Source of the DNA: a virus
IMG/VR virus record: IMGVR_UViG_3300042564_002580
Location: 32,001 to 96,000 of that record
DNA: 64,000 nucleotides
Reading direction: 5' to 3' (one strand)
Under the pieces are notes generated by a model, which was not told where the DNA came from, made no database searches, and saw only the letters and a program-made list of their open reading frames with translations. Below, piece by piece: positions 16,305 through 53,879 of this stretch. The number at the start of each line of letters is the position of its first letter. Within the stretch, counting starts at the first letter, position 1. The position numbers and the translations under genes are program-made.

Positions 16305-17231
16305 ATGTCAAAACATATAGGTAGAAAGTCATCTGCTCAAGATAACTTTGTGGGACCAAATCCAGTAACTGGAGTAACCGCAACAGATTATTTAAACGGA
16401 GTAAACAACGCTAGAGCGTTTAATGACGGAGCAATTACAGTTTCATGGTCCGCTCCAGTAGCAGGAAATACACCTACTGGATATAAAGTTTATGAAGCTG
16501 GAGTTCTACGGGCAACTGTTGCTTATGGTACAAATACAGCATTAATAACTGGCTTAGGCTCAAATACTTCACATACATATGCAGTTTCGTCTTATGACTC
16601 CTATTTAGACAATTCTTCAAATGCAGTTGCTGCACCAGCAGCAACAGCAACTACTGTTCCACAAGCACCAAATACCCCAACAGCAACAGCTGGTGTAGAT
16701 TTGGATACAATTGCATGGACACTTAATGCAAATGGTGGAAAAACAGTAATTGATATATATATTGAATCAAACGAAGCGACTCCAAAAAATAAAACAGTTA
16801 CAACCGCATCAAATGGAAGCACAACTATTGCAAATGAAGCAAATACTGCACAAGCTTACAGAGTACGAGCAAGAAATGCAAATGGCTCTAGTTCATTTTC
16901 AGCATTTTCTAACTCAGTTACGACGCTACCGCCTTCATTCTTTAGCCCACCGTTCTTCCCACCTGGCTTCTTCAGCCCACCGTTCTTCCCACCTGGCTTC
17001 TTCAGCCCACCGTTCTTCCCACCTGGCTTCTTTAGCCCACCGTTCTTCCCACCTGGCTTCTTCAGTCCACCGTTCTTCCCGCCAGTGTTCTTCAGCCCAC
17101 CGTTCTTTCCACCTGGCTTCTTTAGCCCACCGTTCTTCCCACCTGGCTTCTTCAGCCCACCGTTCTTCCCACCTGGCTTCTTTTCTCCACCAGCATTTGG
17201 TGGCGGCCAATTTTCTTTGAGGGCGTACTAA
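16305..17231 (+). CDS. Fibronectin-III virion protein with C-terminal (SPPFFPPGFF)x8 tail and GGG
   Basis: Two FN3-like domains (VSWSAP..GYKV..ITGL..YAVS; IAWT..YRVRARNANG); Pro/Phe repeat. Confidence 0.8.
   Translation: MSKHIGRKSSAQDNFVGPNPVTGVTATDYLNGVNNARAFNDGAITVSWSAPVAGNTPTGYKVYEAGVLRATVAYGTNTALITGLGSNTSHTYAVSSYDSYLDNSSNAVAAPAATATTVPQAPNTPTATAGVDLDTIAWTLNANGGKTVIDIYIESNEATPKNKTVTTASNGSTTIANEANTAQAYRVRARNANGSSSFSAFSNSVTTLPPSFFSPPFFPPGFFSPPFFPPGFFSPPFFPPGFFSPPFFPPGFFSPPFFPPVFFSPPFFPPGFFSPPFFPPGFFSPPFFPPGFFSPPAFGGGQFSLRAY
16941..17180 (+). repeat. Eight tandem 30-bp coding repeats
   Basis: tt(t/c)agcccaccgttcttcccacctggcttc x8; unit 5 has G to V. Confidence 0.95.
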
Positions 17232-17232
17232 T

Positions 17233-17637
17233 ATGACTAAACATTATGCGATCTTATCATTAAATAAAGTTATAGATAAAATTGATGTTGAAAATGTAGA
17301 TGAAGATCTAAATAGAATAGATAGATTTTCAGAACTGTTTGCATCTGAGTTTTTCTGTAAAGATGTAACCGAAAGCAAAAAAGTTAAATTAGATTCAGTA
17401 TGGGATGGAAATTCTTTCTCAGAGTTTGATGTCGAAAGAAATGAAGTTTCTCCATACTCCGTAGCTCTTATTTCAAACAACACTGTAAAAGCAGTTATTA
17501 GAGTATATACTTTAAAAAGACATAATCTATACAAAGAAGCAGAAGTTAATGGAATTTCTGCAGTTGAAGTACCAGAGTCAGACATTGAGCAGGTAAAAAC
17601 TGGAATGTCATGGGACGGTACATCTTTTACAGAATAG
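17233..17637 (+). CDS. Two-repeat protein with WDGxSF motifs; fibre-assembly-chaperone-like
   Basis: Halves end in SVWDGNSF and MSWDGTSF; starts just after the fibre gene stop. Confidence 0.55.
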   Translation: MTKHYAILSLNKVIDKIDVENVDEDLNRIDRFSELFASEFFCKDVTESKKVKLDSVWDGNSFSEFDVERNEVSPYSVALISNNTVKAVIRVYTLKRHNLYKEAEVNGISAVEVPESDIEQVKTGMSWDGTSFTE

Positions 17638-17649
17638 GAAGTTAGTTCT

Positions 17650-18345
17650 TTGAGTAAAGATATTTTAAAAAATGAGATATCTCCTGGTCTATGGGTTTAT
17701 AAAAATCAAATAGATAAAAATATCATCAATGACGTAGAAGATCTACTGTCTAAATATGATGATGATTTTGAGTGGCGAGAAGCAACAGTAGGATATGATG
17801 TAAAAGTACCTTCATATAGAGACTGTGTAGATTTTAAAATTCAAAAGCAGGAAATGCCCAACATGCCAGAAAGCAGAAAAGATTTAAATAAAATATGGCA
17901 AAAAGCATACGATATGCAGATAGATGCAGTTAAAGATTACTGCAAACTTTATAACATTGATATGCAATTCTGGGAAGCAATGAACTTTATTAAATATGGA
18001 GAAGGCCAGCATTTCCAAGAGCATTCAGATCATGGATTTTCTTACATAGCAACAGTTTCATTGGTTTCATATCCAAACGATGACTATGAAGGAGGGGAAT
18101 TATATTTCCCTAAACTTAATTTAACCATAACTCCAGAGGCAGGAGATATAGTTATTTTTCCTTCAACTTATTTGTTTTCACACAGAGCAATGCCAGTCAA
18201 ATCAGGAGTTAAGTATTCAATAGTTACAATGCTTGATTACAACGATAACACTCACAATCAGGAGTTTGATCTTCTTAGAATGAAAAGGACTAATTCTGCC
18301 GCTGCAAGAGAAAGTGCAATGAGTGGAAATAATAAAAGCTTATAA
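17650..18345 (+). CDS. 2OG-Fe(II) oxygenase, P4H-like
   Basis: FIKY..GQHFQEHSD, NDDYEGGEL, FPS...SHRAMPVKSGVKYS. Confidence 0.9.
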   Translation: MSKDILKNEISPGLWVYKNQIDKNIINDVEDLLSKYDDDFEWREATVGYDVKVPSYRDCVDFKIQKQEMPNMPESRKDLNKIWQKAYDMQIDAVKDYCKLYNIDMQFWEAMNFIKYGEGQHFQEHSDHGFSYIATVSLVSYPNDDYEGGELYFPKLNLTITPEAGDIVIFPSTYLFSHRAMPVKSGVKYSIVTMLDYNDNTHNQEFDLLRMKRTNSAAARESAMSGNNKSL

Positions 18346-19039
18346 AACCAAAGAAGGCTTTGCAGAAATAAAGACTCTTCCAGTTAAAAGAGACTGGATG
18401 GATAGCACTTGGCAAAAGCATGCCTATCATTGCTTTCCAGTAACTTTAACAAATACATTAGGGTGGTATTTAAGTTTTCCAGAAGATATAACTTTTATTT
18501 GGGACGGTATTTCAAATTTTGATCCATCCCATGTCAAGATTTTAAAAGGTGACAAATACGCTTATGCTGGAAGAGCAAACGGAACAATAAGTTTTAATAC
18601 AGGTATTAAATTTAAAACCGAAAAAAATGTAACATTGCTGACCATGCCCGCTCCTAATTTTTTTATTGATGGTGCATCTCCTTTTACAACATTAATAAGC
18701 ACATCATTCTTTAGAGCAGATCTTCCAGTAGCTTGGATGATCACATCTCCAAATAAAGAAATTACAATTCCAGCTGGTCACCCAATATGCTCAATAATAC
18801 CAATCAGTCTTGGAGATTTAAATAATTCAGAAATACAAATAGGACCAGAACCAAAAGAACAAGAAGTTTCACAAAAAGAACTATATGAATATTCTATGGC
18901 AGTTCATGAAATAAACAAAAAGTTTAGCTGGTCCGATTTTTACAGAAATGGTGTTGACCATAAGGGAAAAGCCTTGGGTGATCATGAAATAAAAGCTTTA
19001 AAGCTAAAGGTTATAGAGTATAGCCCTAGTGATATTTGA
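18323..19039 (+). CDS. Conserved protein resembling DUF6065
   Basis: KRDWMD..HAYHCFP...N.LGW...WDG signature, recalled family pattern. Confidence 0.6.
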   Translation: MEIIKAYKTKEGFAEIKTLPVKRDWMDSTWQKHAYHCFPVTLTNTLGWYLSFPEDITFIWDGISNFDPSHVKILKGDKYAYAGRANGTISFNTGIKFKTEKNVTLLTMPAPNFFIDGASPFTTLISTSFFRADLPVAWMITSPNKEITIPAGHPICSIIPISLGDLNNSEIQIGPEPKEQEVSQKELYEYSMAVHEINKKFSWSDFYRNGVDHKGKALGDHEIKALKLKVIEYSPSDI

Positions 19040-19063: not shown

Positions 19064-19810
19064 ATGGAAATAGTTAATCAAGGAATTATGGGGGGCGGAA
19101 GAGCTCCTATATCAATTACACCATCAGGTTTTTTTGGGGACTCAATAGATAATATTGTTGAGCTAGAAAACTTTATAACAGAAGAAGAACAGAAGAGGCT
19201 TATTAACTTTGCTCTAACTAATAAAGTTTGGGATAAAACAGAGACCCATATTGATGAAGACGGTTTAGTGCTTTACGATGCAAATATTTGGGAAGATAGA
19301 GTTTGTACTGCAGCCTCACTAAAAAAATCTGATCCAGCAATAATTGATTTGCTATGGGACATGATTGATAGGCTAAAAATAGAAGTAGATAAATTTTTTA
19401 ATGTTAACGTTCAAGCAACTGGCCCAGCAATTGTTAGATGGCCAGTCGGAGCAAGACAAGAGCCTCATGCAGATAAAGAGTTTCACACAGGAGAAGAAGA
19501 AGGAAGACCAAATGATTTTCCTTACTATGACATAGCTGGACTATTCTACTTTGACGATGATTACGAAGGTGGAGAGCTGTATTTTCCAAGACACGGTATT
19601 GAATTTAAGCCAAAGCCTAGGGCAGCTTATTTTTTCCCAGGAGATAAGTATTATGCTCATGGAGTTAGACCAGTAAAGTCTGGAAACAGATTTACCGCTC
19701 CATTTTTTTGGACCATTGTAGAGCACACTGGAGAAAAACAACCTCCGAAAGATTATTCAGACCAGTTTAAATCGCCGTCATGGCAAAAGCTTTATGGAGA
19801 CAGGGGTTAA
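19064..19810 (+). CDS. 2OG-Fe(II) oxygenase, P4H-like
   Basis: VRWPVG..QEPHAD, DDDYEGGEL, YAHGVRPVKSGNRFT; leaderless TGgTATATT-6-ATG. Confidence 0.9.
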   Translation: MEIVNQGIMGGGRAPISITPSGFFGDSIDNIVELENFITEEEQKRLINFALTNKVWDKTETHIDEDGLVLYDANIWEDRVCTAASLKKSDPAIIDLLWDMIDRLKIEVDKFFNVNVQATGPAIVRWPVGARQEPHADKEFHTGEEEGRPNDFPYYDIAGLFYFDDDYEGGELYFPRHGIEFKPKPRAAYFFPGDKYYAHGVRPVKSGNRFTAPFFWTIVEHTGEKQPPKDYSDQFKSPSWQKLYGDRG

Positions 19811-19813
19811 CAG

Positions 19814-20659
19814 ATGCATAGTTTAAATATAGTTGATGATATAAATTCTTTAGATTGGACAGAGCTGCTTCCAGGTGTAATCCTTTACAGAGGAATGCTA
19901 AAAGATCCAGACCTTGCATATAAGATAATGATGCGCTCAGAGTCTTCTGAACAAAGTAATTTTTTCCAGAACTGGACTCCATGGGCTCAATATGGAACAT
20001 ACACCCAGGCAAAAGATCAGCAAATGATTGAGTCAGCAGAAAAAAATGAAATTTTTGAAGAAGAAAAAGCTTTATACGAAGAGATTGCGACATCTTACGA
20101 TAAAGCAATATCACACTATTTTAAGCACACTGGAATTGAAATTCCAGAAGGTGCAAGATATAGTGGTCAGTCATGGTGTAAGTACTTCAATCTAATTGAT
20201 ACATTAAAAAATAAAATGACCATGCAATATCACACTGATTTTATTATTTCTCAGAAGGATATGCCTGGAGAAAAGTTTCACACAACATGTACTTTTTATA
20301 TTAATGACAATTACAATGGCGGAGATATAGAGTTCTTTGTTGAAGGTAAATTTGTAAATCATAAACCGTCTGCTGGAGACCTTCTAGTATTTCCATCAGG
20401 AGAGCCTTTCTATCATGGAGTAAAAACAATACCAGATGGAAATAAGTTCTTCATTAGAAACTTTGTAATGTTTGATTATGATGGCTCAAAAGAGTGGTTA
20501 GCAAATCAAAAAAGATACGGCGCATATAGGTGGGGTAAACAAGAAATTGAAAGAATCGCAAATGAAGACCCAAGAAATATGATCTATATAAGAGATAATG
20601 AAGTTATATCTTATGAAGAAATAATGGGCGTTGACACTGGCGGAGGAATATACAATTGA
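19814..20659 (+). CDS. 2OG-Fe(II) oxygenase, P4H-like
   Basis: MQYHTD, YINDNYNGGDI, FPS..FYHGV...GNKF. Confidence 0.88.
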   Translation: MHSLNIVDDINSLDWTELLPGVILYRGMLKDPDLAYKIMMRSESSEQSNFFQNWTPWAQYGTYTQAKDQQMIESAEKNEIFEEEKALYEEIATSYDKAISHYFKHTGIEIPEGARYSGQSWCKYFNLIDTLKNKMTMQYHTDFIISQKDMPGEKFHTTCTFYINDNYNGGDIEFFVEGKFVNHKPSAGDLLVFPSGEPFYHGVKTIPDGNKFFIRNFVMFDYDGSKEWLANQKRYGAYRWGKQEIERIANEDPRNMIYIRDNEVISYEEIMGVDTGGGIYN

Positions 20660-21435
20660 AACTAATTAAAGTTAGAGATAATGAGCACCCAGTATATTTG
20701 TATGAAGATTTTTTAACTAAAGAAGAATGCGCTGGTATTATTAAAATGTTTAACAATCTTATAAAAAGCGGAGACTTTGAATGGCATCCAATTTCTTTTT
20801 ATGAGTCTTATGCGTATAACATGCCAAACCAACTAACAGATGATAAGAATAAGCTATCTCGATGGTATGCAGATGCTGGATTGCCAGACAACTTCCTAGA
20901 TGACCTAGAAAAAAAGTTTAAAGATGCAGCTCGTGAAATAATCGGAGGAGAAGCTTATAAAATAAGTTTTCATAGTCAAAAATGGATTCCTGGAGCATAT
21001 GCAGCTTTTCACTCAGACAACAGTTATGATGGTGAGCCAAGTGCATTTGAAAGAAGTAGATACGCAGGTTTTCTTTATTTAAACGATGAGTTTGATGGCG
21101 GGGAACTTAATTTTAAAAACTTTGATTTAAGCGTAAAGCCTAAAACAGGAATGTTTGCTATTTTTGACGGCGGTCATGAAAACACTCATGAGGTAACACC
21201 TGTATTTAAAAGCGACAGATATACTGTAGGATCATTTTGGGATGATCGGCCAGAAGAAGATTATCCTCAAGAAACAAGAGACAGGTGGGCTTCAGAAATT
21301 GATGATACAAGAAAGAAACAAAAAGTAGAGCAAGAAGAGTGGAAAGAGATAAGAGATAGCGGAAAAAGAAGAACGCCAGATGGCAGAGAGTATGATGCAG
21401 TTTTAGCAGAAAGCGGAGAAATCCATGGAAATTAG
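20656..21435 (+). CDS. 2OG-Fe(II) oxygenase, P4H-like
   Basis: YEDFLTKEEC, FHSD, YLNDEFDGGEL, HEVTPV..DRYT. Confidence 0.9.
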   Translation: MKLIKVRDNEHPVYLYEDFLTKEECAGIIKMFNNLIKSGDFEWHPISFYESYAYNMPNQLTDDKNKLSRWYADAGLPDNFLDDLEKKFKDAAREIIGGEAYKISFHSQKWIPGAYAAFHSDNSYDGEPSAFERSRYAGFLYLNDEFDGGELNFKNFDLSVKPKTGMFAIFDGGHENTHEVTPVFKSDRYTVGSFWDDRPEEDYPQETRDRWASEIDDTRKKQKVEQEEWKEIRDSGKRRTPDGREYDAVLAESGEIHGN

Positions 21436-22117
21436 AGAAGTTCAGCCAAGGCAAATGTACACTATGTTTGACATTGTGTTTCACGATAGAGGAATAGTTT
21501 ATTTTGAAAATGTAATTAGTTATCCAGAGACCCTGTTAAAAGTTATGGAAGACCTAGATTCTAACCCAAAATCACATAGCGGAATACCTGAATGGAGCAA
21601 GTGGGGGGCAAGCAACGATGATAATCATGGGTATGGAATTCAAAAGTTTATTGATACCTCTAAAAAGCTTATGAACACCGATGATGAGTTTTTAAACAAA
21701 CAAGTTTTGTATGTTGTTAATAGCTTAATCATGGCCCCAGAAATGTGTGCAAAAAGATATGCTGAAATAATGCGTAGAGATGCATCTAGAATCCAAAAAG
21801 TAGATAGCACACCAGAGCAGGTTAAGATGGGCCTAGATTATATTAAGGTTGCTAAATATGACACTGGTAAAGGTATGGGTCCGCATTGTGATGCTGAAGA
21901 TCCGTCTGGTACTGGACAAAATCTAAAGTACTCCCTAGTTTGCTATTTGAATGATGATTACGAAGGTGGAGAAATTTACTTTAAAAATCAAGATATAAAG
22001 ATTAAGCCAAAGGCAGGTAGCCTTGTTCTATTCCCTTCAGTTCATCCATATTTACATGAATCTCTTCCAGTTACAAAAGGAAATAAGATCATGTTTACTA
22101 CTCATTGGATGGTTTAG
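21425..22117 (+). CDS. 2OG-Fe(II) oxygenase, P4H-like
   Basis: KY..GKGMGPHCD, YLNDDYEGGEI, FPS..YLHES.PV..GNK. Confidence 0.9.
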   Translation: MEIREVQPRQMYTMFDIVFHDRGIVYFENVISYPETLLKVMEDLDSNPKSHSGIPEWSKWGASNDDNHGYGIQKFIDTSKKLMNTDDEFLNKQVLYVVNSLIMAPEMCAKRYAEIMRRDASRIQKVDSTPEQVKMGLDYIKVAKYDTGKGMGPHCDAEDPSGTGQNLKYSLVCYLNDDYEGGEIYFKNQDIKIKPKAGSLVLFPSVHPYLHESLPVTKGNKIMFTTHWMV

Positions 22118-22156: not shown

Positions 22157-23920
22157 ATGTCATATTACCTTTTAGCAATTAAAGACTCTCCTCTAGGCTT
22201 ATGGAAGCTAGATGAGACATCTGGATCTGTAGCTTATGACACTTCTGGTTGCGGAAATAATGGTTCTTATGTTGGTCAGATATCTAGGTCTAGTTTGCCA
22301 ATTGTATCTGGAGGATCACATTCTAATAAAATAGACAGCGTTAACTACTTACAGTTTACATTATCAAAAGATTTTTCTGGAACAAATGGCACTGGTGGGT
22401 TTGCAACAACAGACACTTACGATAATGACTTCACATTAGAAGTTTGGTTTCATCCAAAAACCTTAACATCCTTAACACCCATACTTGCTGACTCAAATGG
22501 CATAGGTCTGTATTGGGATAAAGGAAATGTCGTATTTAAATTAGAAGATCAAAGAATTGATTATTCAGTTCCAAACCCAGATAGAGTAATTCATGCTGTT
22601 GGAGTTTACTCAGTTAATTCAATCATGTTGTATGTAGACGGCATTTTGGTTGCATCTAAATCAGTAGATTTTAAGTTTACAAATAGTAGTGTCACTCTTT
22701 TTTCTGGACCATCTTCTGGCTCAGAATATTTTATAATTGATTGCCCAGCCGTATATAGGTACTCGTTATCACAAAGAGCAATATCTTCACACTATAATAA
22801 CTTGTTTTTAAATAATGATGAGCAGGTATCTGTTCCAGATCTGGGAGAGCTTTTTAGAGCTGCAGAAAAATATCAAGACATAGAAACAAAATATGTTTAT
22901 CCAATTCAAGAATCTTGGGAGACTTTGATTTATGATAATGAGGCTTTGTCATACAACCCAAGCAACAATAGTATACGTTTAAATTCAGGGTTTTCTAATG
23001 GAGAGTTTGTAGAGGATGTAGTTTTAAATATTACAAAACAATACGTATCTTCAAAAATAGAATGGGTCTCATCTAAAGGAGTCTCCGTGTATGTTTCAGA
23101 AACATCAGCGCTTGGGCCATGGAGAATATGTTCAAATGGGTCTTCTATACCAGAATTTACACAGGGTTCTAGTTTTTCTTCACAAAAAATACTTTACTTT
23201 AGAATAGTTTTTGACTCATCAAATCCAGATATTTATCTTCCAGAACTATACTCTTTAAAGATTTACTTTCATTCTGAAAAGAAAATGTTTGCACATAATG
23301 GAGGAAGTACGCTTTCAATATCTCAACCCACTACTGGATCAACTTGGGATTTTGATGTTTCTAACAACAGCTACCCAGCTAGAAGTCGAAACTACCATAA
23401 CGGAATAAGACCAAAATCTTCAGCATTTTTTATAGACTCAGTAAATGATGTTCGTAATATTGAAATGATATTTACCCCAAAAACGCTTTCTAGCGGAAAC
23501 CTAATATTTAATAAGACTGGCGCAATAGAGACATCTCTTTCCTGGGCGGCAGGCGGAGAAATATCAAAATCTAACATTAGCAACATATATATAAATGGTC
23601 AGGATGTATCCTCAGCAACCAATATCTCATCATACTTATATATAGATGAGCCAAATTATATATTGATAAAAACTTCTAGCATAATATCTGGGCCTATTTG
23701 GTTTAATGGCAAGCAGATATTGGGAGTAAGGTCTAATGTCCTAGATGACAATATGTATCAAAATATTGCCCTATATTCAAATCCAGATATTAGCCACCAA
23801 AATCATTATAACCTGTATACAGGTAAATCTGCATCTATTGGGCAAGGTTCGTCAATGGAAGTGACAGAAGAGTCGGTATCTACCTACTCTAGAGACAGAG
23901 TTGTGTTTCAGATTATATAA
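22157..23920 (+). CDS. Virion protein with LamG/concanavalin-like domain
   Basis: PLGLWKLDETSG..AYDTSG.GNNG, FTLEVWF, LYVDG motifs; leaderless TATAAT-6-ATG. Confidence 0.75.
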   Translation: MSYYLLAIKDSPLGLWKLDETSGSVAYDTSGCGNNGSYVGQISRSSLPIVSGGSHSNKIDSVNYLQFTLSKDFSGTNGTGGFATTDTYDNDFTLEVWFHPKTLTSLTPILADSNGIGLYWDKGNVVFKLEDQRIDYSVPNPDRVIHAVGVYSVNSIMLYVDGILVASKSVDFKFTNSSVTLFSGPSSGSEYFIIDCPAVYRYSLSQRAISSHYNNLFLNNDEQVSVPDLGELFRAAEKYQDIETKYVYPIQESWETLIYDNEALSYNPSNNSIRLNSGFSNGEFVEDVVLNITKQYVSSKIEWVSSKGVSVYVSETSALGPWRICSNGSSIPEFTQGSSFSSQKILYFRIVFDSSNPDIYLPELYSLKIYFHSEKKMFAHNGGSTLSISQPTTGSTWDFDVSNNSYPARSRNYHNGIRPKSSAFFIDSVNDVRNIEMIFTPKTLSSGNLIFNKTGAIETSLSWAAGGEISKSNISNIYINGQDVSSATNISSYLYIDEPNYILIKTSSIISGPIWFNGKQILGVRSNVLDDNMYQNIALYSNPDISHQNHYNLYTGKSASIGQGSSMEVTEESVSTYSRDRVVFQII

Positions 23921-23983: not shown

Positions 23984-24328
23984 ATGGATATAAAAAGAAT
24001 TAATGCCCAAATGAAGTCTGGTGAAACTAGGCTTGGAGTCTATGTCTGGGAAATGCCTGACGGAAGATGGGTTGGTGACGAAGACAATAACTTTTTATCT
24101 ATATCATCCATGATTGGAAACAAAGAAAGAATTGCTTTGCTTGCAGCAGCCGTAGCACACTATGGAATTGATGTTGGTCAGCCTAAGTTTATTGAGGGAA
24201 GCCGACAAATTGATGAGGAAGAGTTTGAGTATCAAAAACAAAGATTAAGATGGGGTCTAACTCCAGATCCACTAGACATCGGTGTTCACAAAGAAGAAAT
24301 GGCTAGACTAAATGGTGGTAAAAAATGA
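23984..24328 (+). CDS. Hypothetical protein preceding portal
   Basis: ORF track; overlaps the portal start (ATGA). Confidence 0.75.
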   Translation: MDIKRINAQMKSGETRLGVYVWEMPDGRWVGDEDNNFLSISSMIGNKERIALLAAAVAHYGIDVGQPKFIEGSRQIDEEEFEYQKQRLRWGLTPDPLDIGVHKEEMARLNGGKK

Positions 24329-28350: not shown

Positions 28351-28370
28351 TTTAAGAAATAACTTGCTGG

Positions 28371-28400: not shown

Positions 28401-28450
28401 CATTTTAATTTTCTAGTGCTATAATTTATATACATACCAAAGGAGTATAT

Positions 28451-45611: not shown

Positions 45612-45634
45612 TAACGTAATGGTATAATAAATAA

Positions 45635-45976
45635 ATGGGAATTGAATCAGGAAAAATTGCGGTCATATTTGATGATGACCCGCGTTTAGCCGCAGTATGG
45701 AAAGGTAAGTCTGGAGAGACTAAATCCGCTACACAATCGTTTCCATTTACAGCAACTACTTCTGGTGGTAATAACGACGACGGAGATGATGATCCAAAGA
45801 GCGGGAAAAGGCCTCAGCTTTCAGATATAGTTTTAAAAGGATTTGAACTGTATGAGGATGCATCTGGAATGCAAAGAGCAAGAGCAAAGTTTAGAATTTA
45901 TAATTCAAGCGAAGAGCAGATAGATGGATTCCTGTATGCAATAACAATTTCAGATACCCAAGGAGGAAGATCATGA
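45635..45976 (+). CDS. Hypothetical tail-region protein
   Basis: Leaderless TGgTATAAT-6-ATG. Confidence 0.7.
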   Translation: MGIESGKIAVIFDDDPRLAAVWKGKSGETKSATQSFPFTATTSGGNNDDGDDDPKSGKRPQLSDIVLKGFELYEDASGMQRARAKFRIYNSSEEQIDGFLYAITISDTQGGRS

Positions 45977-46833
45977 TAACTAAATTTGGTAAGAGATTCC
46001 TTGCAAATTTTGTAGCAGGAAATTCTTCATTTGCTTCAAAAGAAATGGCTATCGGAATTGCAACAGGAACTGAGTATGCTTTGTCAGATAGCAACTCAAG
46101 ATTAGGGTTTGAGTTTTATCGTGTTCCAATTAGGGTGGGCGGAATAGATATAGACTCCTCCGTATCACCAGTAAAGTATACAGTTATATATTCAGCTACA
46201 CTTCCTACAAACATTGCAGGAAAAATAAATGAAATTGGAATCTACTCTGGTCAATCTTATTCAAGGAATTTATATGAAAGCAAATTCATATCTAATTTTG
46301 AATTGCCATATCAATGGAGTCCAGAACCATCATTAGATCAAACAAATTATAGAGTTGGAGACAGCTCATTAATATTTACATCAAATGCGACGGCTCCAAG
46401 AGAGTACACACACGTACTTGATAGTATGGATATATCTGGATACAACCCATCAGATACATTATCATTTTCATACAAAGCAAATGATGCAAACCTATCCTCA
46501 TTAAAGGTAAGGCTATATAGCTCAGATAACGATTATTTGGAGTTTACATTTACTGGACACTCAGTTGGATATAATATAAAGAATTTAAACATGTCTACTG
46601 GGGTATCAACAGGAACATTTAATCCACAAAGTGTTGTTAAGTTAGGAATTATTGTTACTCCAACAACTGCTCAAACATCTGTATCTATGGATGGTCTTAG
46701 AATAAATGACGAGGACACCTTTGATCCAGAATACGGTTTAATAGCTAGGTCTTTACTAGACTCAACAATGATTAAAGTAATAGGACGAGAAGCAGCAATA
46801 GAATTTAAACTAGACCTATCGTTTGGCGAGTAA
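45973..46833 (+). CDS. Tail/baseplate structural protein
   Basis: MITKFGKRFL..AIG..LGFEFYR..INEIGIY N-terminal pattern of phage tail proteins. Confidence 0.6.
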   Translation: MITKFGKRFLANFVAGNSSFASKEMAIGIATGTEYALSDSNSRLGFEFYRVPIRVGGIDIDSSVSPVKYTVIYSATLPTNIAGKINEIGIYSGQSYSRNLYESKFISNFELPYQWSPEPSLDQTNYRVGDSSLIFTSNATAPREYTHVLDSMDISGYNPSDTLSFSYKANDANLSSLKVRLYSSDNDYLEFTFTGHSVGYNIKNLNMSTGVSTGTFNPQSVVKLGIIVTPTTAQTSVSMDGLRINDEDTFDPEYGLIARSLLDSTMIKVIGREAAIEFKLDLSFGE

Positions 46834-46834
46834 C

Positions 46835-49306
46835 ATGTCTGAACAGTATCCAGATCTAGGTATCACACAAAAACAAGATGGTGATTACTGGGATGTTGTA
46901 ATTCCAGACTTAGACTGTAATACTGATTACGCACTTCAGGTTGCTTGGGTATACAGCGATAAATCATTGGGCTCTAGCGAATTCTCAGATAGATTTAATT
47001 TCAGAACCCCAGGACCGTCTAGAGTTTGCCCAGCAAATGTATCTGCAACATGGGATGCTAAAGCTGGACTAAATGTTACATGGCAAAAAAATGATAACCG
47101 TGTAAAAAATTATGTAATTACTCTTGTGGCTGGTGGGTACAGAAGGTCGCACCTTATTTCAGCAACTGGATCCTCTTTAAACTACTCATGGATATTGACA
47201 AGAGAAAATAACATATTCCAATTCGGAGGAGTATTTAGAAAATCCTTTACATCTTTTTCTATCCAAAGCGTTTATGGAGATGGAAGCTCAGATGAATGTC
47301 CAGTAACCGTTGCAGAATATGTAGACCCAGTATGTTCTCATACAACACTAGCAGCCTCATGGAATGTTGTTAGCCAAAGCAACGGCATACTTGTTTCTTG
47401 GCAAGATAGTGCAACAGGATACGGAACGTATAGAGAAACTAGGGTATACGTTTCAGAAACACCTAGCCCTTATAATTGGGAGCTTCGATATACTGGAATT
47501 GGTCCAGCTTCAATAACACTAGATACCCTAGCAACAGTTTATGTTAAACTAAATCATCTTTCTTATTCAGACTGTGAGTCTTTGAACTCAGATATAAAAG
47601 AAGGAAAAGCATACGACCCAATAGTATTTGACGATTTACCACCAGAAAATAACTTTGATTTAGGATCTACTACCGTTGAAGAAGATTCAAATGGTCTATT
47701 TAATTTTGATAAAAAAATTCTTTTTACATGGACACAAAACACAGATACTTCAACTTCTGGATACAGAATAAGATACAAGACTGCTTCTGATACTAATTAT
47801 ACATATATGTCTGTTCCAGGAAGAGGAACTATATCTACATATCTGTATGGATTAAAAGCGGGACAAGCTTATCAGATAGCTGTAACAACATACGATGTTT
47901 ATGGAAATGATAACTCTCAGTATAAGCAGTATCCAGATATAGTTATCCCAGCAAACACATCATTAAAAACAGATGTAGCAATTTCTGCAGGAGATATGAA
48001 GCTTGGATATGGAATTGGTGGAAGCAACTCAAATAAAGGTTTATACATTGCCCCAGAAAATTATTGGTATGTAACTGGAAATACCAGCGTTTCATCTTCT
48101 GCAAGATTTAAAGTTGGAGGAACAAACGACTGGTTGCTTTGGAACGGAACTAATTTAGAAATAACTGGAAAAATAAATGCTAATGCTGGAGCATTTACTG
48201 GTTCTGTAGACATAGGAACATCATCTGTAGATGGACAACTTAGAGTAACAACATCATCTGGAAAATTTGAAATAGGAAAGCTAACAAATATTTCTGGAGA
48301 AAAGATTGGTATTGGAATCCAAGGAACAAACTCCTCTGGTAAGCTTTTCCAGCTAGACACTGAATCTGGAATTATTGCTAACAAAGGAACAATTGCTGGT
48401 TGGACAATTGACGATACATCAATTAACAAGGCTGGCAACGTAGGGTTCTTTGCCACAACAACTCCCTCAGATGTTGCAATTTGGGCTGGAGGATCTAGAA
48501 CAGTAAGTCCTAATTTTTCAGTTACATACGCAGGAAAAATGATAGCTAAAGATGCCGTTCTTAAAGGAATGGTACAGGCTGGAGAAGGCGGATTTGGAAT
48601 ACTTATAGCAGATGCAACTACAGCAACTGGTTATAGAGTTTCTAATGGGTGGACAATTGATTCTGCAAAAATAGTATCTACAAATGCAAGTTCTCAAGTA
48701 ACGCTTGATGGATTGCAAGGCTCAATAATAGGCGGAAATATTGTTGGATCAAATCATTATTTTATGAGCCCATCTGCATGGACGACAGCTTATCCTGGAG
48801 AGGGAAGCGGTAACCCAGGGAATGTTGATTACATATCATCATCTGGTAATTTCAGACTTGCTAATGGAAAGCTAACATATGATGGAGATGAATTTAAAGT
48901 TCAAACAGATTTAGTTGCGTCTAACGTATTTTTAGGAGCAACATCAAGTCTGGGAGATACAGCCAATTATTTACTAGGAAAGTCAACTACAATTGGTGGT
49001 GTAACAAAAGCTGCAGGAAGCTTTAGTTTAGGAAATGGTGCAATTAATTACACCTCTGGATCAAGTGTCTTAAATGTAGATGCAACTAGGATTGATTTTA
49101 ATATTAGAAGTAATAATGATGGAACACTTGGAGATGAAACAGTTGTTCAAGACGTAGATACTGGGGAGCTTACTTTAGGAAGAGCATTTTTTTACGGAGG
49201 AAATAACTACCCAGGAAGCACTACTGATAGAGTAACGCATGCGGATGGAGATCAGGGCAGCGGAGCCTTTAAAAAAGGCGACATATGGTTAAGCAGGAAA
49301 GCATAA
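46835..49306 (+). CDS. Tail fibre/spike protein with FN3 domains
   Basis: FTW..GYRIRYK..YGLKAGQAYQIAVTTYD FN3; GTIAGWTI beta-rich region; ATG 46835 preferred over TTG 46823. Confidence 0.75.
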   Translation: MSEQYPDLGITQKQDGDYWDVVIPDLDCNTDYALQVAWVYSDKSLGSSEFSDRFNFRTPGPSRVCPANVSATWDAKAGLNVTWQKNDNRVKNYVITLVAGGYRRSHLISATGSSLNYSWILTRENNIFQFGGVFRKSFTSFSIQSVYGDGSSDECPVTVAEYVDPVCSHTTLAASWNVVSQSNGILVSWQDSATGYGTYRETRVYVSETPSPYNWELRYTGIGPASITLDTLATVYVKLNHLSYSDCESLNSDIKEGKAYDPIVFDDLPPENNFDLGSTTVEEDSNGLFNFDKKILFTWTQNTDTSTSGYRIRYKTASDTNYTYMSVPGRGTISTYLYGLKAGQAYQIAVTTYDVYGNDNSQYKQYPDIVIPANTSLKTDVAISAGDMKLGYGIGGSNSNKGLYIAPENYWYVTGNTSVSSSARFKVGGTNDWLLWNGTNLEITGKINANAGAFTGSVDIGTSSVDGQLRVTTSSGKFEIGKLTNISGEKIGIGIQGTNSSGKLFQLDTESGIIANKGTIAGWTIDDTSINKAGNVGFFATTTPSDVAIWAGGSRTVSPNFSVTYAGKMIAKDAVLKGMVQAGEGGFGILIADATTATGYRVSNGWTIDSAKIVSTNASSQVTLDGLQGSIIGGNIVGSNHYFMSPSAWTTAYPGEGSGNPGNVDYISSSGNFRLANGKLTYDGDEFKVQTDLVASNVFLGATSSLGDTANYLLGKSTTIGGVTKAAGSFSLGNGAINYTSGSSVLNVDATRIDFNIRSNNDGTLGDETVVQDVDTGELTLGRAFFYGGNNYPGSTTDRVTHADGDQGSGAFKKGDIWLSRKA

Positions 49307-52300
49307 ATGAGCTGGTGGAGAAAAGCAAACCTAAACGATGCTGGTAATATTGATGGCTGGATAAAAATAAGAAGCATTTGGAGAAAAACTAATTTAGGTG
49401 ATGCAGGATCAACAGACGGTTGGTTAAGAATAAGAAGCGCTTGGAGATTTCAAGGATTAAATGCGTTAGGCGCTGGAATTTGGTATAAAATTTTTGGAGG
49501 GGAGTCTCCTTATCCAAAAGAAAACCCAAAGCTAATATTTGTTTCTCCAGATTCAAGCACTTCTGAAATACAATGCACTCAGCAAGATAAGATGTATGTT
49601 ACAAGAGGGAAATGGTACGAAGACCCATTATCATTTTTAATTAAAATACAAAGGTCTATAATCTCAAATTGGGATGCTCCAACAACATTAGTTAGCCAGG
49701 AGCTAGAGTACACAACATATCTAGATTCAGACTATTTAGATGAAGTTCCTAAGTTGCCTGCAGATAGACCAACAATAACATTAGACGACGTCAAAGCTAA
49801 AAGAGGATTTAGGGCACAGGTTCAAGCTGGGCAGGATGCCAATCCAACAGAATCAGACTACGCACTTGCAACTTCATGGTACCCAAGCCCAACAGGAATA
49901 TTCCCAAGACTAACATTTGGATTTACTACATATAGCACAGGAGATCAAATTGTTGAAGATGAAACAATCAGTATGCCTGAATTTAAAATATTTGGTTTTA
50001 AGTGGCAGTATCTTACTTCTTCTGCAGCATCATATCCAAACGGTCAGTACTTTCCATCATCTCGAACAGATGAGTTTATTGGGAAACAAATAATTGAGTT
50101 AACTGATTTTTATGGGGTTAGGATAGGTGCATTGCAAGAAGTTGATGTTTTGCCAATTCATCAATATTCTGGAAGTATAACATACACTCAAGCAATGATA
50201 GATTCTGGCGATGATTATATTATAAATGTTTATTCGGTTGCAAAAGATTATTACTATAATAGCGGACTGTCTTTAGATGGACATATATCTGATCCAAATG
50301 AAACATCAAGAATTGCATCTTATGTATTTACCCCTCCAAGGGAAATAGAAAACCCAGAAATAACAATATCAAATAGGACAAAAAGCTCTGTAGATATATC
50401 CTGGTATTCTCCAGATGCGGAAAGATATAAGGTTAATATAATTGATTCTATTACAGGTAACTCTTTGCCTGGCTATCCATTAACCTCAACAACAAATACT
50501 TCTGCCAGCCCTTTTGGATTAACGGAAAACAGACTGTATACCGTTTTGGTAACGGCACTTGCTGGAGAAGGAGACAAGTACAAAAGCGACGAGGTTTCTA
50601 AAAGCTTTAGAACATTGTCGTCTGGAATTGCAGCAGAATTAGGAATGCCTTACGACATAACATCAACAGGGTATAAGGTTGACATAACAAATTGGAGCAC
50701 TATCAGTTCATTTGATATAACAGTTTCTGCAACAAGTGGAAGTGCGACAAGGTCCTCCGAAGTTATATCTGTAAGCAATGTTACATCGGGAGCCAATTCA
50801 TGTCTAACAGCAACAACATCTAAAATTGATAATATAAACTTAACTTCAGTTTCCTATGAGTCAAAAGAGTCTGCTGCTAGATGTATTGTTATCGGAGGTA
50901 CCTGGTACTGCTTATCTCTTGTTACGGGTGGCCTTTGTTCTAAATCAACCGAGACATACGACAAAACAATAAATGGATCATACTATGCAATTGTATGCTC
51001 TCAAACAGATAACCTATGCTGCCCTTCAGTTGTTCTTGAGCCAAAAGTCTACGGTGAATGGGTCACAGGACTTTGCACAGTAGCTCCACAAGATCCACAA
51101 AGAACAAGAACAAGGACATGGACCCAAATTCAAAAAACAACTGCTCAAAATTGTGTTATTACAAATGTAGAGCTTTCTGGTGTAGATATAGAACAGATTG
51201 ATTGCTGTGTACCAACATCCACTCTTGGAGCAAAAACTTATGGGACACCAAATGCTTGGGGCACATGTAATTTAAATACTGGACAAATTGGAAGAACTGT
51301 TCCGTGGACAGCAACAAAAACTAATTTTACTAGAGACTGTACCACAACTACAACAGAAGAAAGCGGTCTTGAAGTTCAGTATAAAGATTGTTGTACTGCC
51401 AGCTCATCTTTGGGAACTAAAACTTATAGCGACTGGTCTCCATATGGATCATGTATTCAAGGAGAAAGAGCAAGCTATAGAACCTGGACTGCTATTCAAA
51501 CAAATAATACAATTAACTGTACCACAACATCTAACGAAGTTAATGGTACAGAATATAGATACACATCATGTTGTACAGCTGGTTGTACTTTAGGAACTAA
51601 AACTTACGGTGATTGGTCAGCTTACGGTTCATGTGTTCAGGGGGAGAGAAGACGACAAAGATCCTGGACTGCTATAAATACCTGTATAGATTCAAGCTGT
51701 AATATTATTTCTCAAAATGAATTAAATAGCGTAGAGTATGAGTACACATCATGCTGCGTACAATCATGTACTACTGGAGCAAAAACTTATGGTGCATGGA
51801 CAGCCTATGGATCCTGTATCCAAGGTGAACGTGCTAGATCGAGGAGTTGGACTGCTACACAATCATGCTTTACAACAAGTTGTACTAATACAACTGAAAC
51901 AATTAGCGGTACAGATTTTGAATACACTGGCTGCTGCACGGCAAGTAGTACAACTGGCACTAAAACTTATGGTGCATGGACAGCCTATGGATCCTGTATC
52001 CAAGGTGAACGTGCTAGATCGAGGAGTTGGACTGCAATACAGACTAATATTGATTCTAGCTGCAATACCACTACAACAGAAGTTAACGGTACAGATTTTG
52101 AATATACTTCATGCTGCACGGCAGGATGTACAACTGGTGATAGAAGTTATAGCCCATGGGGGTCATGGGGTTCCTGTAGCCAAGGAGAACAAGCTAGAAT
52201 TAGAACGTGGACTGCTATAGAGACATGTATTAATTCAAGCTGTAATGTTTTGTCTACCAGAGAAGTTAGTGGTTTTGAAATAGAATACAGAAACTGTAGC

Positions 52301-53005
52301 ACTATTAATACTATTAATACAATTAATACTATTAATACAATTAATACTATTAATACAATTAACACTATTAATACTATTAACACAATTAACACTATTAATA
52401 CAATTAATACTATTAACACTATTAATACAATTAACACTATTAACACTATTAATACAATTAATACTATTAACACTATTAATACAATTAATACAATTGATTC
52501 AGGCGGCGGCGGCGGATGTCACGTATTTGGTACACAAATACAAATGTTTGACGGAACATTTAAAAACATTGAAGATTTATATATTGGGGATGAAATCATG
52601 GCGGCTAATATACCAGGCTTAGATGATAATGAATTAGATATTAATAATCTATTATTATGGTCATCTGAAGACATTTCTGAAACAACAAAAACTTCTGCTA
52701 TGGTTACAAATATATTTACTAGATCATATGGACAATACTACCTTATTAATGATACAATTAAAATAACTTATGAGCATATAGTTCCTGCACGTAAATCTGG
52801 GGTATGGAAATTTATTCAAATTGAAGAATTAGAAATTGGAGACAATATTATGAGTGATACGTTAGACGTAGTCGAAGTAGCATCTAAAATATTAATAAAT
52901 GAAGATGTAGAGACTATATCAATAAACATTGAAACAAAAGACGTTTATTTTGTTGATGGCTTAATGGCACACAATATTAATCCAGATAAGATGCAGGAAA
53001 CATAA
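49307..53005 (+). CDS. Fibre-tip protein: FN3 + 7 Cys/Trp-rich TSR-like repeats + (TIN)x21 + Gly5 + Hint domain
   Basis: Domain motifs read directly; see findings. Confidence 0.8.
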   Translation: MSWWRKANLNDAGNIDGWIKIRSIWRKTNLGDAGSTDGWLRIRSAWRFQGLNALGAGIWYKIFGGESPYPKENPKLIFVSPDSSTSEIQCTQQDKMYVTRGKWYEDPLSFLIKIQRSIISNWDAPTTLVSQELEYTTYLDSDYLDEVPKLPADRPTITLDDVKAKRGFRAQVQAGQDANPTESDYALATSWYPSPTGIFPRLTFGFTTYSTGDQIVEDETISMPEFKIFGFKWQYLTSSAASYPNGQYFPSSRTDEFIGKQIIELTDFYGVRIGALQEVDVLPIHQYSGSITYTQAMIDSGDDYIINVYSVAKDYYYNSGLSLDGHISDPNETSRIASYVFTPPREIENPEITISNRTKSSVDISWYSPDAERYKVNIIDSITGNSLPGYPLTSTTNTSASPFGLTENRLYTVLVTALAGEGDKYKSDEVSKSFRTLSSGIAAELGMPYDITSTGYKVDITNWSTISSFDITVSATSGSATRSSEVISVSNVTSGANSCLTATTSKIDNINLTSVSYESKESAARCIVIGGTWYCLSLVTGGLCSKSTETYDKTINGSYYAIVCSQTDNLCCPSVVLEPKVYGEWVTGLCTVAPQDPQRTRTRTWTQIQKTTAQNCVITNVELSGVDIEQIDCCVPTSTLGAKTYGTPNAWGTCNLNTGQIGRTVPWTATKTNFTRDCTTTTTEESGLEVQYKDCCTASSSLGTKTYSDWSPYGSCIQGERASYRTWTAIQTNNTINCTTTSNEVNGTEYRYTSCCTAGCTLGTKTYGDWSAYGSCVQGERRRQRSWTAINTCIDSSCNIISQNELNSVEYEYTSCCVQSCTTGAKTYGAWTAYGSCIQGERARSRSWTATQSCFTTSCTNTTETISGTDFEYTGCCTASSTTGTKTYGAWTAYGSCIQGERARSRSWTAIQTNIDSSCNTTTTEVNGTDFEYTSCCTAGCTTGDRSYSPWGSWGSCSQGEQARIRTWTAIETCINSSCNVLSTREVSGFEIEYRNCSTINTINTINTINTINTINTINTINTINTINTINTINTINTINTINTINTINTINTINTINTINTIDSGGGGGCHVFGTQIQMFDGTFKNIEDLYIGDEIMAANIPGLDDNELDINNLLLWSSEDISETTKTSAMVTNIFTRSYGQYYLINDTIKITYEHIVPARKSGVWKFIQIEELEIGDNIMSDTLDVVEVASKILINEDVETISINIETKDVYFVDGLMAHNINPDKMQET
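51017..52300 (+). repeat. Seven Cys-rich coding repeats of about 60 aa; 74-bp exact duplication at 51782-51855 and 51962-52035
   Basis: CC.....G.KTYG.W..YGSC.QGER.R.R.WTA...C consensus. Confidence 0.9.
52301..52498 (+). repeat. 9-bp tandem array ac(t/a)attaa(t/c): 21 Thr-Ile-Asn units plus one Thr-Ile-Asp
   Basis: Counted from the DNA; variation among the TIN units only at synonymous positions. Confidence 0.95.
52517..52975 (+). other. Hint (intein-like) autoprocessing domain, 153 aa, no homing endonuclease
   Basis: Block A CHVFGTQI.M.DG..K.IEDL.IGDEI; block B ITYEH; EELEIGD; terminal YFVDGLMAHN. Confidence 0.88.
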
Positions 53006-53583
53006 TGGTGCAAGATTTAGGTAATAATATATTCATGTACAAGAATGTTATAGGCTCAGACTTAGATATATTAAAAGAAGTTAATTCTATATTTGTCACT
53101 TACAATAGAGGATTTGCAGAGTCTACAATGAATGATGGCGATTACGATAAAGCTCTTAGGTCCTGCACCGTCTTTTCATTGTATACAAATAAACAAGAAG
53201 ACGTTGACTACAATAATTTAAAGAAGATATTAAATAAAAAAATAGATATTGCTCTTTCAGGATGCATACTGGATTTTGTTAAAAAATCTGGAATAAAGAT
53301 TAAAGAAAGAGAACCCTGGGAAATATTGAAATATGAAAAAGGCCAGATGGTTACTTGGCATTGTGATGATGGGGAAGTTCACCCATCAAAAATATCATTC
53401 GTTTACTACATAAATGATGATTACGAAGGCGGAGAGATACAGTTTAAGAATAAGGTGTACACTATGCCAATAAAGCCATCTAGAGATAGCCTTATTGTTT
53501 TTCCTTCAGGCATGGACTATATACATAGAGTTACTCCAGTAACAGAGGGAACAAAATATTCAGTAATATCTTTTGGGAAATAG
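53005..53583 (+). CDS. 2OG-Fe(II) oxygenase, P4H-like
   Basis: LKYEKGQ..WHCD, YINDDYEGGEI, FPS..YIHRVTPVTEGTKYS; TAATG-coupled to the fibre gene. Confidence 0.9.
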   Translation: MVQDLGNNIFMYKNVIGSDLDILKEVNSIFVTYNRGFAESTMNDGDYDKALRSCTVFSLYTNKQEDVDYNNLKKILNKKIDIALSGCILDFVKKSGIKIKEREPWEILKYEKGQMVTWHCDDGEVHPSKISFVYYINDDYEGGEIQFKNKVYTMPIKPSRDSLIVFPSGMDYIHRVTPVTEGTKYSVISFGK

Positions 53584-53594
53584 GTAAAATAAGG

Positions 53595-53623
53595 TAGACA
53601 AAATTTTAACTAAATGCTAGAAT
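53595..53623 (+). promoter_or_regulatory. Promoter TAGACA-17-(TGc)TAGAAT
   Basis: Consensus match. Confidence 0.55.
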
Positions 53624-53645
53624 ATTATAATGTTACGGAGATATT

Positions 53646-53879
53646 GTGAATAAATCAGATATGCAAGGAAGCACATATATGGTGCTTGTTGATGGTGAGT
53701 ACGCTGGGTGGTTTAACATTGCTGGCCCTGGAACCGATCTATTAAGAGCTGGTCTTTCAAGCACACCAATTTTAGTAGATATGGAAGACATTGAAATTGA
53801 TATTCCAGATTTACCAAAAGCTGGTGCTAATTATTTTTGGAACGGTAAGTCTTTTGAATTGAGAGAAATAAATGGCTAG
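53646..53879 (+). CDS. Small protein ending in WNGKSF; resembles one repeat of 17233
   Basis: Y.VLVDGE...GANYFWNGKSF. Confidence 0.6.
   Translation: MNKSDMQGSTYMVLVDGEYAGWFNIAGPGTDLLRAGLSSTPILVDMEDIEIDIPDLPKAGANYFWNGKSFELREING

Follow-up and report, generated by a model that had tools for sequence, protein, structure and literature searches.

Low-complexity fibre stalks, Hint domains and neighbouring oxygenases: a candidate fibre-tailoring module in uncultured freshwater siphophages

Composition of the two fibre loci

We analysed a stretch of 64,000 nucleotides, hereafter the window, that spans bases 32001-96000 of the 117,027-bp virus record IMGVR_UViG_3300042564_002580, which is rated 98% complete. 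The window holds two fibre clusters: locus A, placed between ribonucleotide reductase and portal, and locus B, at the end of the tail module. Each combines a fibre protein that has a low-complexity stalk with one or more 2-oxoglutarate (2OG)-Fe(II) oxygenases resembling prolyl 4-hydroxylases (P4H) and with a small protein bearing the motif W[DN]GxxF (Table 1). The bearer of this module is a large lineage of uncultured freshwater siphophages. An earlier note, made from the letters of this DNA alone, had listed the genes, repeats and gene order of both loci, and translations, Pfam searches and a tandem-repeat scan bear it out. It had also proposed that the clusters encode a fibre-tailoring system, which is the subject of this study.

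At locus A, the body of the fibre protein FibA gives a weak Pfam fn3 match (E 7.6e-4, under the cut-off), and the translation of 16305-17231 contains no Hint domain. The small protein that follows, SMA, bears two W-D-G-x-S-F motifs. Five PF13640 oxygenases, which we designate by their start positions (17650, 19064, 19814, 20656 and 21425), each score above the Pfam cut-off. They are accompanied by a DUF6065 protein, a constant member of the oxygenase cluster that co-occurs with it in relatives; the possibility that DUF6065 is itself an oxygenase relative was dropped, as no kinship is detectable (hhalign 0.3%). A collagen-like reading of the Pro/Phe repeats was considered as well, given that some alleles read (small-P-P)(small-F-F), and was abandoned because the 10-mer of the window lacks Gly at every third residue.

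At locus B, the fibre protein FibB continues past its Thr-Ile-Asn (TIN) stalk as SGGGGG/CHVFG...TYEH...AHN/INPDKMQET, which places the putative scissile Gly/Cys bond at 52516/52517. The number of TIN copies ranges from 10 to 31 among close relatives. Oxygenase 53005 starts on the last base of the FibB stop codon (53003-53005). After the small protein SMB comes a Cys-rich open reading frame (53872-54108) that was absent from the earlier list; many relatives, among them the oxygenase-less record G006, encode its 78-amino-acid (aa) product together with small W[DN]GxxF proteins.

Table 1. Features of the two fibre loci and of their surroundings, in window positions
Feature	Position	Strand	Evidence
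FibA, 308 aa: FN3-like body, (SPPFFPPGFF)8 stalk, GGG, 9-aa end	16305..17231	+	
30-bp tandem repeat x 8.2, encodes Pro/Phe stalk	16938..17182	+	TRF score 427, 92% matches
SMA, 134 aa, two W[DN]GxxF modules, candidate fibre chaperone	17233..17637	+	
Fibre-proximal P4H-like 2OG-Fe(II) oxygenase of locus A	17650..18345	+	PF13640 E 2.6e-13
DUF6065 protein	18323..19039	+	PF19541 E 5.7e-32
Oxygenase paralogues	19064-19810, 19814-20659, 20656-21435, 21425-22117	+	PF13640
FibB, 1232 aa: fn3, Cys-rich 60-aa repeats (180 bp), TIN stalk, Gly5, Hint domain	49307..53005	+	
9-bp repeat x 21.7, encodes (T-I-N)n	52301..52495	+	TRF
Gly5 hinge directly before Hint Cys1	52502..52516	+	translation
Predicted BIL-type Hint domain: Cys1, TYEH, terminal His-Asn; then 9 aa starting with Ile	52517..52975	+	
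Fibre-proximal 2OG-Fe(II) oxygenase of locus B	53005..53583	+	PF13640 E 3e-14
SMB, 77 aa, single W[DN]GxxF module (WNGKSF)	53646..53879	+	
Cys-rich protein, 78 aa	53872..54108	+	phrog_13558 E 1.6e-16; DUF6171 E 3.7e-4, below cut-off
Upstream fibre-like protein of cluster A, 734 aa, Mtd_N start, Ala-rich repeats	14072..16276	+	Pfam Mtd_N E 6.1e-14
Tandem repeats of the upstream cluster-A fibre-like gene	14943-15310		
Laminin_G_3 protein downstream of cluster A	22157..23920	+	PF13385 E 2e-11
Portal	24325-25905		
Head protease and capsid protein (structural genes of window)			
Tape measure, 2857 aa	33197-41770		
Minor tail protein	42357-45611		
Penultimate fibre protein of cluster B, 827 aa	46823..49306	+	Pfam fn3 E 5.9e-7

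The C-terminal domain of FibB is predicted to fold as a BIL-type Hint domain. Its AlphaFold2 (AF2) model (pLDDT 89.9, pTM 0.84) matches in Foldseek the BIL2 domain 6y75 (E 7.5e-9) and the BIL domain 2lwy (E 3.3e-8), then inteins and Hedgehog; 53 PDB chains are found at E <= 1e-3, and those listed are all BIL, intein, Hedgehog or Vint. In our Hint alignment (A5), Cys1 (C37), TYEH (with T120 and H123) and HN are invariant, and so are Gly33-36 of the hinge. Searches at the sequence level were less informative: the Pfam Hint families stay below their cut-offs (PT-HINT 21.0 bits against 27.7, Hom_end_hint 19.4 against 32.1, Hint 15.5 against 29.7, Hint_2 14.3 against 28.4), and a PDB sequence search with the domain reached only E 0.3. 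Beyond the terminal Asn, FibB and its relatives have 5-10 residues or none. The canonical intein +1 Cys, Ser or Thr is missing, the residue being Ile here and Phe, Tyr, Asn or Leu in relatives, and because of this Ile we would not expect protein splicing by the FibB Hint. Neither FibB nor its C-terminal 168 aa match the Pfam domain Peptidase_S74; the Hint occupies that place instead.

The catalytic motifs of the module oxygenases read as intact. Against a gathering cut-off of 27 bits, the six enzymes score 51.2, 29.5, 32.3, 40.0, 56.4 and 54.2 bits with PF13640, and from 17650 to 53005 the iron triad and the basic residue are HSD/H/K, HAD/H/R, HTD/H/K, HSD/H/R, HCD/H/K and HCD/H/K; H119, D121 and H174 are invariant in our oxygenase alignment (A4). 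Motifs said in the earlier note to be shared by the two fibre-nearest enzymes are present, with spacings slightly different from those given: the gap in KY..GQ....H.D is 4 residues rather than 3, and that in FPS.....H...PV..G.KYS is 5 rather than 2. NDDYEGGE occurs in oxygenase 21425 as well and is hence not specific to the fibre-nearest pair, and KY..GQ....H.D is confined to 17650 and 53005. These two are reciprocal best paralogues (80 bits, 30% identity over 187 aa; next best 66-68 bits). Oxygenase 17650 matches the Bacillus anthracis prolyl 4-hydroxylase 3itq at E 2.1e-7; this enzyme (3itq, 5hv0) is its closest solved sequence relative, with only ~80 residues aligning.

We placed 130 distinct oxygenases of related contigs and 12 of this genome in one tree; there, the fibre-adjacent enzymes form one clade (support 0.96), which splits into a subclade associated with TIN-Hint fibres and one associated with Pro/Phe fibres. 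The separation of these subclades means that oxygenase phylogeny tracks repeat type. The remaining cluster positions are separate orthologous groups whose order is conserved. Three larger tandem paralogues (337-363 aa), far from the fibre genes at genome 97259-100360 (window-equivalent 65259-68360), form a clade of their own beside the 19814 group.

The small proteins of the two loci are homologous, as the earlier note had supposed; one of the conditions that it had set for refuting its proposal thus does not hold. Comparison of family profiles (10 and 7 members) by hhalign gives a probability of 92.4% and E 5.3e-7 over 59 columns; profiles were needed, since direct BLASTP of SMA against SMB reaches only E 0.025, over the terminal motif. 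SMB matches the second half of SMA; SMA itself consists of two tandem copies of a module whose end is W[DN]GxxF. The AF2 model of SMA (pLDDT 87.1) has two beta-rich modules and short helices, with neither a helical bundle nor a C-terminal helical trimerisation domain. Its best structural match (VIA) among 48,161 chains is residues 2-56 of the Pam3 gp25 N-domain (7ypx_a), at Z 5.5, a root-mean-square deviation of 2.8, 55 aligned residues and 22% identity; the next match has Z 4.1. The nearest named Atlas clusters to the small proteins are the Caudo_TAP families (0.80 and 0.78), with Caudo_TAP_N nearest at 0.80, which we treat as a lead only. A PDB sequence search with SMA was uninformative.

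Stalks, Hint domains and oxygenases across relatives

Oxygenases are so abundant in this genome that mere proximity to a fibre gene is weak evidence, and the comparative data must carry the case. PF13640 has 12 matches in the 117,027 bp, 10 of them above the cut-off, and a purpose-built hidden Markov model finds 14 oxygenases; further PF13640 matches lie at genome 10.9, 36.5, 97.8-100.1 and 104.2 kb.

Anchored searches yielded 179 loci from related viral contigs. Fibres orthologous to FibB end either in TIN-Gly4/5-Hint, always followed by an oxygenase, or in (PFFPP)n with neither a Hint nor an adjacent oxygenase, and one lineage runs from Pro/Phe through TIN and Hint to the oxygenase. The C-terminal tails are thus interchangeable, as had been suggested from the window alone. 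In one genome (G009), the TIN-Hint cassette sits on an unrelated fibre body, and its oxygenase is 72% identical to the TIN subclade. The description of the low-complexity tracts as C-terminal peptides needs qualification: the Pro/Phe tract is at times an internal linker, as indicated by two fibres (G003 10562-13315, G001 43474-47943) in which it is followed by an FN3-like domain.

Locus-A orthologues of the 308-aa FibA carry Pro/Phe repeats of period 5, 6, 7 or 10. In 21 locus-A clusters (at 90% identity) the Pro/Phe repeat is followed by a Hint that belongs to one of various divergent subtypes, with 15-25% identity to the Hint of the window, and this supports the earlier suggestion that FibA has lost its Hint. 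SMA follows none of the 21 Hint-bearing FibA clusters and 7 of the 9 Hint-less ones, from which we infer that Hint and SMA may be cis or trans alternatives for the same assembly task. Two locus-A fibres (G007 27391-28434, G001 86322-87395) with a Pro/Phe/His stalk and VGG(G) end in a short Cys-rich knot, which is a third kind of C-terminal cap and replaces the Hint there.

At locus A, the oxygenase cluster goes with the stalk. The Laminin_G_3 gene is retained in relatives with and without oxygenases and served as the context anchor for 33 loci that show at least 6.9 kb upstream of it. Clusters of four or more oxygenases occur in 18 of the 33. The gene upstream of the cluster is visible in 12 of these and encodes a Pro/Phe-tailed fibre in all 12; in the remaining 6 the visible sequence is taken up entirely by the cluster. 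Among loci with at most one oxygenase, a Pro/Phe-tailed fibre is found in 0 of 15. The portal tree requires 5 switches between having and lacking the cluster.

Hint genes show a comparable pattern. Within the first 179 loci, an oxygenase lies within three genes downstream of 28/28 Hint genes (13/13 clusters), which exceeds the background set by general oxygenase abundance (117 of 1701 other genes, 6.9%). A type-2 Hint profile contributed 46 more loci, and with these included the figure is 33 of 41 Hint clusters. Genomes in which the locus-B fibre ends in Pro/Phe and no oxygenase adjoins it have a Pro/Phe fibre with an oxygenase cluster at locus A (G001 and G003; G002 and G005 show clustered matches). 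The 72% complete G006, the one record without oxygenases, also lacks Pro/Phe, TIN and Hint fibres; the pair of small and Cys-rich proteins is kept.

Beyond this lineage, a Hint profile finds 7,892 representatives at E <= 1e-3 and 1,233 at E <= 1e-10. Among the top 150, most proteins end in the Hint, which comes after low-complexity repeats of aromatic or Pro-rich composition and/or poly-Gly, the stalks including PFFPP, FGFTPFG, FSPFGVFG, PPYFPYFP, PPDFTPAPP, YYAP, GFYHG and poly-Pro. A metagenome scan with poly-Gly type-1 Hints added 31 loci. Those that bear TIN (L283-L285 and the fragment L289) have two oxygenases after the Hint gene, and a separate viral contig (L220) encodes an FGFTPFG-Hint protein with an overlapping oxygenase gene. 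In some of the non-TIN loci the position is held by other enzymes: a PF11397 GlcNAc-transferase at +1 after Hint-ended repeat proteins (L280, L295, L296), a GT7-Laminin_G fusion at +2 (L267-L269) and a TylF-like O-methyltransferase at +1 (L251). Oxygenase and PF11397 transferase were not seen together among our loci. A PF11397 search of the present genome gave no match, and as the control search matched nowhere either, absence is not shown.

When 106 Hint genes in 65 clusters are pooled, an oxygenase follows in 31 of the 39 clusters whose stalk is Pro/aromatic, Pro-rich or TIN, and in 2 of the 19 whose stalk is Gly-rich or of another kind. Since some stalks of other kinds have other enzymes, the neighbouring enzyme goes with the chemistry of the stalk and not with the Hint domain as such. 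The simpler notion that the Hint alone dictates an oxygenase is ruled out by the 24 of 24 non-TIN poly-Gly Hint loci that lack one. The association is real, recurrent and modular, and comparison across relatives gives good grounds for functionally linking the type of stalk to the enzyme next to it; the tailoring proposal is to that extent partly supported.

Proposed mechanism and competing explanations

We propose, with a probability of roughly 55%, that the module is a maturation and tailoring system for the phage's own fibres. Its first part is a fibre-like virion protein with a folded body, a low-complexity stalk (Pro/Phe or T-[IV]-[ND]), a Gly-rich hinge and often a BIL-type Hint; the second, a P4H-like 2OG-Fe(II) oxygenase of a dedicated clade encoded immediately downstream, to which locus A adds four to eight paralogues and DUF6065; and the third, a small W[DN]GxxF protein, putatively a beta-sandwich. 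What the data show is which genes are present and how they are related, the Hint fold of the model, intact catalytic motifs and the way in which the parts co-occur and are inherited together; we infer all of the biochemical steps. Where a Hint is attached, it would serve as a docking handle for the cognate oxygenase. The oxygenase or oxygenases would then hydroxylate the neighbouring stalk, on Pro in Pro/Phe repeats and possibly on Asn/Asp or Thr/Ile in TIN. The Hint might subsequently remove itself by an N-S acyl shift at Gly/Cys1 and resolution of the thioester, and would not splice because there is no +1 nucleophile. The small proteins may be Tfa-like chaperones acting in trans, which at locus A would replace the lost Hint.

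Structure prediction supports docking of oxygenase 53005 on the Hint domain. We modelled ten TIN units with Gly5 and the Hint in complex with this enzyme and obtained an ipSAE of 0.67 (runs 0.67, 0.68 and 0.66), with 0.01 for the best of 3 controls; of 80 solved complexes, 58 attain the ipSAE mark used, as do 2 among 110 mismatched pairs. At least 37% of contacts are common to the runs, and partner pLDDT is 83 or higher. The confident contacts of the model lie between the Hint (modelled interface at residues 57-60 and 98-104 of the construct) and residues 75-102 of the oxygenase, a segment outside its catalytic core. We know of no solved Hint-oxygenase complex.

Parts of the proposed system have counterparts elsewhere. 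Eriksson et al. reportedly found in 1999 that a prolyl 4-hydroxylase of the chlorovirus PBCV-1 acts on the virus's own Pro-rich repeats. Both cases pair a virus-encoded P4H-like enzyme with Pro-rich repeat proteins of the same virus. PBCV-1 is a giant algal virus, whereas here we have bacteriophages with as many as nine paralogues, in fixed order, alongside DUF6065; their repeats are of the Pro/Phe type or are TIN, which lacks proline, the system is linked to Hints, and hydroxylation is only predicted. For the Hint, the A-type BIL domains of Clostridium thermocellum (2lwy) and of Tetrahymena BUBL1 (BIL2, 6y75) have the same predicted fold (TM 0.70-0.82), and they share Cys1, TxxH, the terminal His-Asn, the lack of a homing endonuclease and a location at the end of a variable surface protein. 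In contrast to these, the phage Hint caps a fibre right after a low-complexity stalk and poly-Gly, is usually followed by a tailoring-enzyme gene and lies below the Pfam Hint cut-offs, with cleavage putative.

For the small proteins, the comparison is with tail-fibre chaperones. According to PMC9608196, these act in trans (Pam3 gp25, TfaMu) or are C-terminal intramolecular domains (T5 pb1, K1F endosialidase). As with gp25 and TfaMu, a small gene lies directly after a fibre gene, and the gp25 beta-sandwich is the best structural match of SMA. The choice between a self-removing C-terminal domain, as in T5 pb1 and K1F, and a trans chaperone mirrors the near-complete mutual exclusion of Hint and SMA at locus A. 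Unlike these chaperones, the small proteins have no Caudo_TAP match and no C-terminal helical trimerisation domain, and unlike in T5 pb1 and K1F the predicted self-cleaving domain is a Hint rather than Peptidase_S74. Among the listings and abstracts that our literature searches returned, we found no paper tying a Hint or BIL domain or a P4H-like enzyme to phage fibre processing; papers on toxin-releasing HINT domains (PMC3482391) and terminase inteins (PMC3556154) proved not relevant.

Several observations weigh against the tailoring proposal. Hint function evidently needs no oxygenase, given the 24/24 non-TIN poly-Gly metagenome loci and the collagen-Hint virion protein of Erwinia phage pEa_SNUABM_30, which has no oxygenase neighbour in the one record inspected. 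No oxygenase adjoins any of the 13 clusters of Hint-less locus-B fibres with Pro/Phe, and 8 of the 41 Hint clusters likewise have none nearby; in these cases oxygenase action in trans would be required. For several of the 8, the same contig has a Hint fibre and an oxygenase cluster ~5 kb off. The genome encodes 6 to 8 more oxygenases away from fibres. Oxygenase 53005 matches PKHD-type hydroxylases only, and weakly (E 5e-3), and the TIN stalk contains no proline. For a chaperone role of the small proteins, the gp25 match at Z 5.5 and the Atlas value of 0.80 are weak leads: three members gave no match to Caudo_TAP or any other Pfam family at E <= 10, and Foldseek with the SMA model found nothing. 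The 5 state changes at locus A were counted on the portal tree and not on a tree of the locus. The docking score is the model's own confidence, obtained from purpose-built alignments. Finally, co-occurrence is no proof of function, because neighbours in a recombining fibre region are co-inherited by linkage.

If fibre tailoring is correct, host-recognition structures of these phages bear enzyme-installed chemistry that is invisible to sequence-based prediction of host range, Hint/BIL domains gain a role in virion assembly, and part of the census of auxiliary metabolic genes (AMGs) would have to be reclassified as structural maturation genes. The module supplies a concrete, testable substrate for the oxygenases, the repeat stalk of the phage's own fibre, and a predicted docking surface on the Hint domain.

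We tentatively extend the proposal further, to a form that we regard as possible though doubtful. By analogy with the leader peptides of ribosomal natural products, the Hint may be a self-removing 'follower' that recruits a tailoring enzyme matched to the stalk and is then excised. The class of enzyme would be set by stalk chemistry: oxygenase, GlcNAc- or galactosyl-transferase, or O-methyltransferase. In the hydroxyproline glycosylation of Skp1, the prolyl hydroxylase PhyA acts first and the GlcNAc-transferase Gnt1 second. We take PF11397 to be the family of Gnt1, and the PF11397 transferases noted above (L280, L295, L296) hold the position that an oxygenase holds here. On this reading, the ~7,900 representative Hint-ended repeat proteins would be the signature of an extensive and so far undescribed system in which enzymes diversify the chemistry of phage adsorption organelles, and many 'orphan' phage P4H-like genes now counted as metabolic would be explained.

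Alternatively, the oxygenases could have auxiliary tasks or be directed at the host, with host proteins, nucleic acids and small molecules as examples of targets, and could simply sit in the hypervariable fibre region as a hitch-hiking island linked to fibre cassettes, so that fibres are not their substrates. We consider this unlikely. The dependence of oxygenase occurrence on stalk type (31/39 against 2/19), the dedicated fibre-proximal clade with subclades following TIN or Pro/Phe, and the perfect split at locus A (12/12 against 0/15, over 5 state changes) are not what such an island would lead us to expect, even though the same genome has oxygenases elsewhere and 12 PF13640 matches in all. 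Pro/Phe locus-B fibres without adjacent oxygenases fit hitch-hiking, but the occurrence of other classes of protein-tailoring enzyme at the same position in other lineages does not, and the modelled Hint-oxygenase complex passes. Current annotation leans towards an auxiliary role: the PHROGs category of these oxygenases is 'moron, auxiliary metabolic gene', and PMC9301287 counts P4H-like 2OG-Fe(II) oxygenases among the commonest AMGs of aquatic phages and calls their use cryptic.

A third explanation links the two activities chemically and is, in our estimation, improbable. Rather than serving to decorate the stalk, the oxygenase would install a hydroxyl group on the fibre or a partner protein; as a nucleophile, this group would resolve the thioester of the Hint and so yield a covalent ester cross-link or a C-terminal adduct, in analogy to Hedgehog cholesterol transfer and BUBL BIL conjugation. 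BUBL BIL2 and BIL domains are indeed the top structural matches, the lack of a +1 nucleophile means that the thioester must be resolved in some other way, the oxygenase is modelled on the Hint itself and not on the stalk, and the two are often adjacent (33 of 41 clusters). Simple hydrolysis, however, is the usual fate of BIL thioesters. In addition, locus A of the window keeps five oxygenases without any Hint, and many Hint proteins are found without an oxygenase.

Least probable, and very much so, is a purely DNA-level device in which the repeats are substrates for slippage or recombination that vary fibre length or swap C-terminal cassettes while the peptide remains an unmodified, passive spacer: TIN copies do vary from 10 to 31 between near-identical relatives, cassettes are swapped exactly at the stalk and the Pro/Phe tract can lie within the protein as a linker ahead of an FN3 domain, but Pro/Phe composition is kept across periods of 5, 6, 7 and 10 aa and differing codons, which indicates selection on the protein, the enzyme neighbours and the tracking of stalk type are left unexplained, and such a device is in any case compatible with fibre tailoring rather than exclusive of it.

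Genome setting and further observations

The portal is 55-58% identical to those of Streptomyces phages of the Stanwilliamsviridae, and on account of this resemblance the host is probably an actinobacterium. A nucleotide search of 50,697 cultured phage records reveals no relatives of the fibres or of locus A. In protein searches of cultured phages only the Hint part matches, in 37 records of Erwinia and Dickeya jumbo phages at 27-29% identity. One of these, gp107 of Erwinia phage pEa_SNUABM_30 (L219:4017-5459), is annotated as a virion structural protein and has collagen repeats and a C-terminal Hint that ends His-Asn/Thr; the two genes after it are also collagen-like.

Collagen-like proteins occur in the freshwater lineage as well. 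In L001:5892-8612 and L043, long proteins with Gly-X-Y x 41 are encoded downstream of the oxygenase cluster; in G006 and some further relatives, collagen-like proteins occur where there are no oxygenases. The Ser1-type Hint fibre and the oxygenase cluster of one sublineage (L041:1078-2173, G009 33285-34386) are separated by two conserved genes, of ~180 and 194 aa, that match no family.

On two marine metagenome contigs (L292:5773-6252 and L293), a free-standing SegE-type GIY-YIG homing endonuclease (E 8.4e-27) lies directly 3' of a Hint-ended poly-Gly protein, which hints that some Hint cassettes may be mobilised by a neighbouring endonuclease. The window also contains a single tRNA-Ile with anticodon TAT, at 2226-2301.

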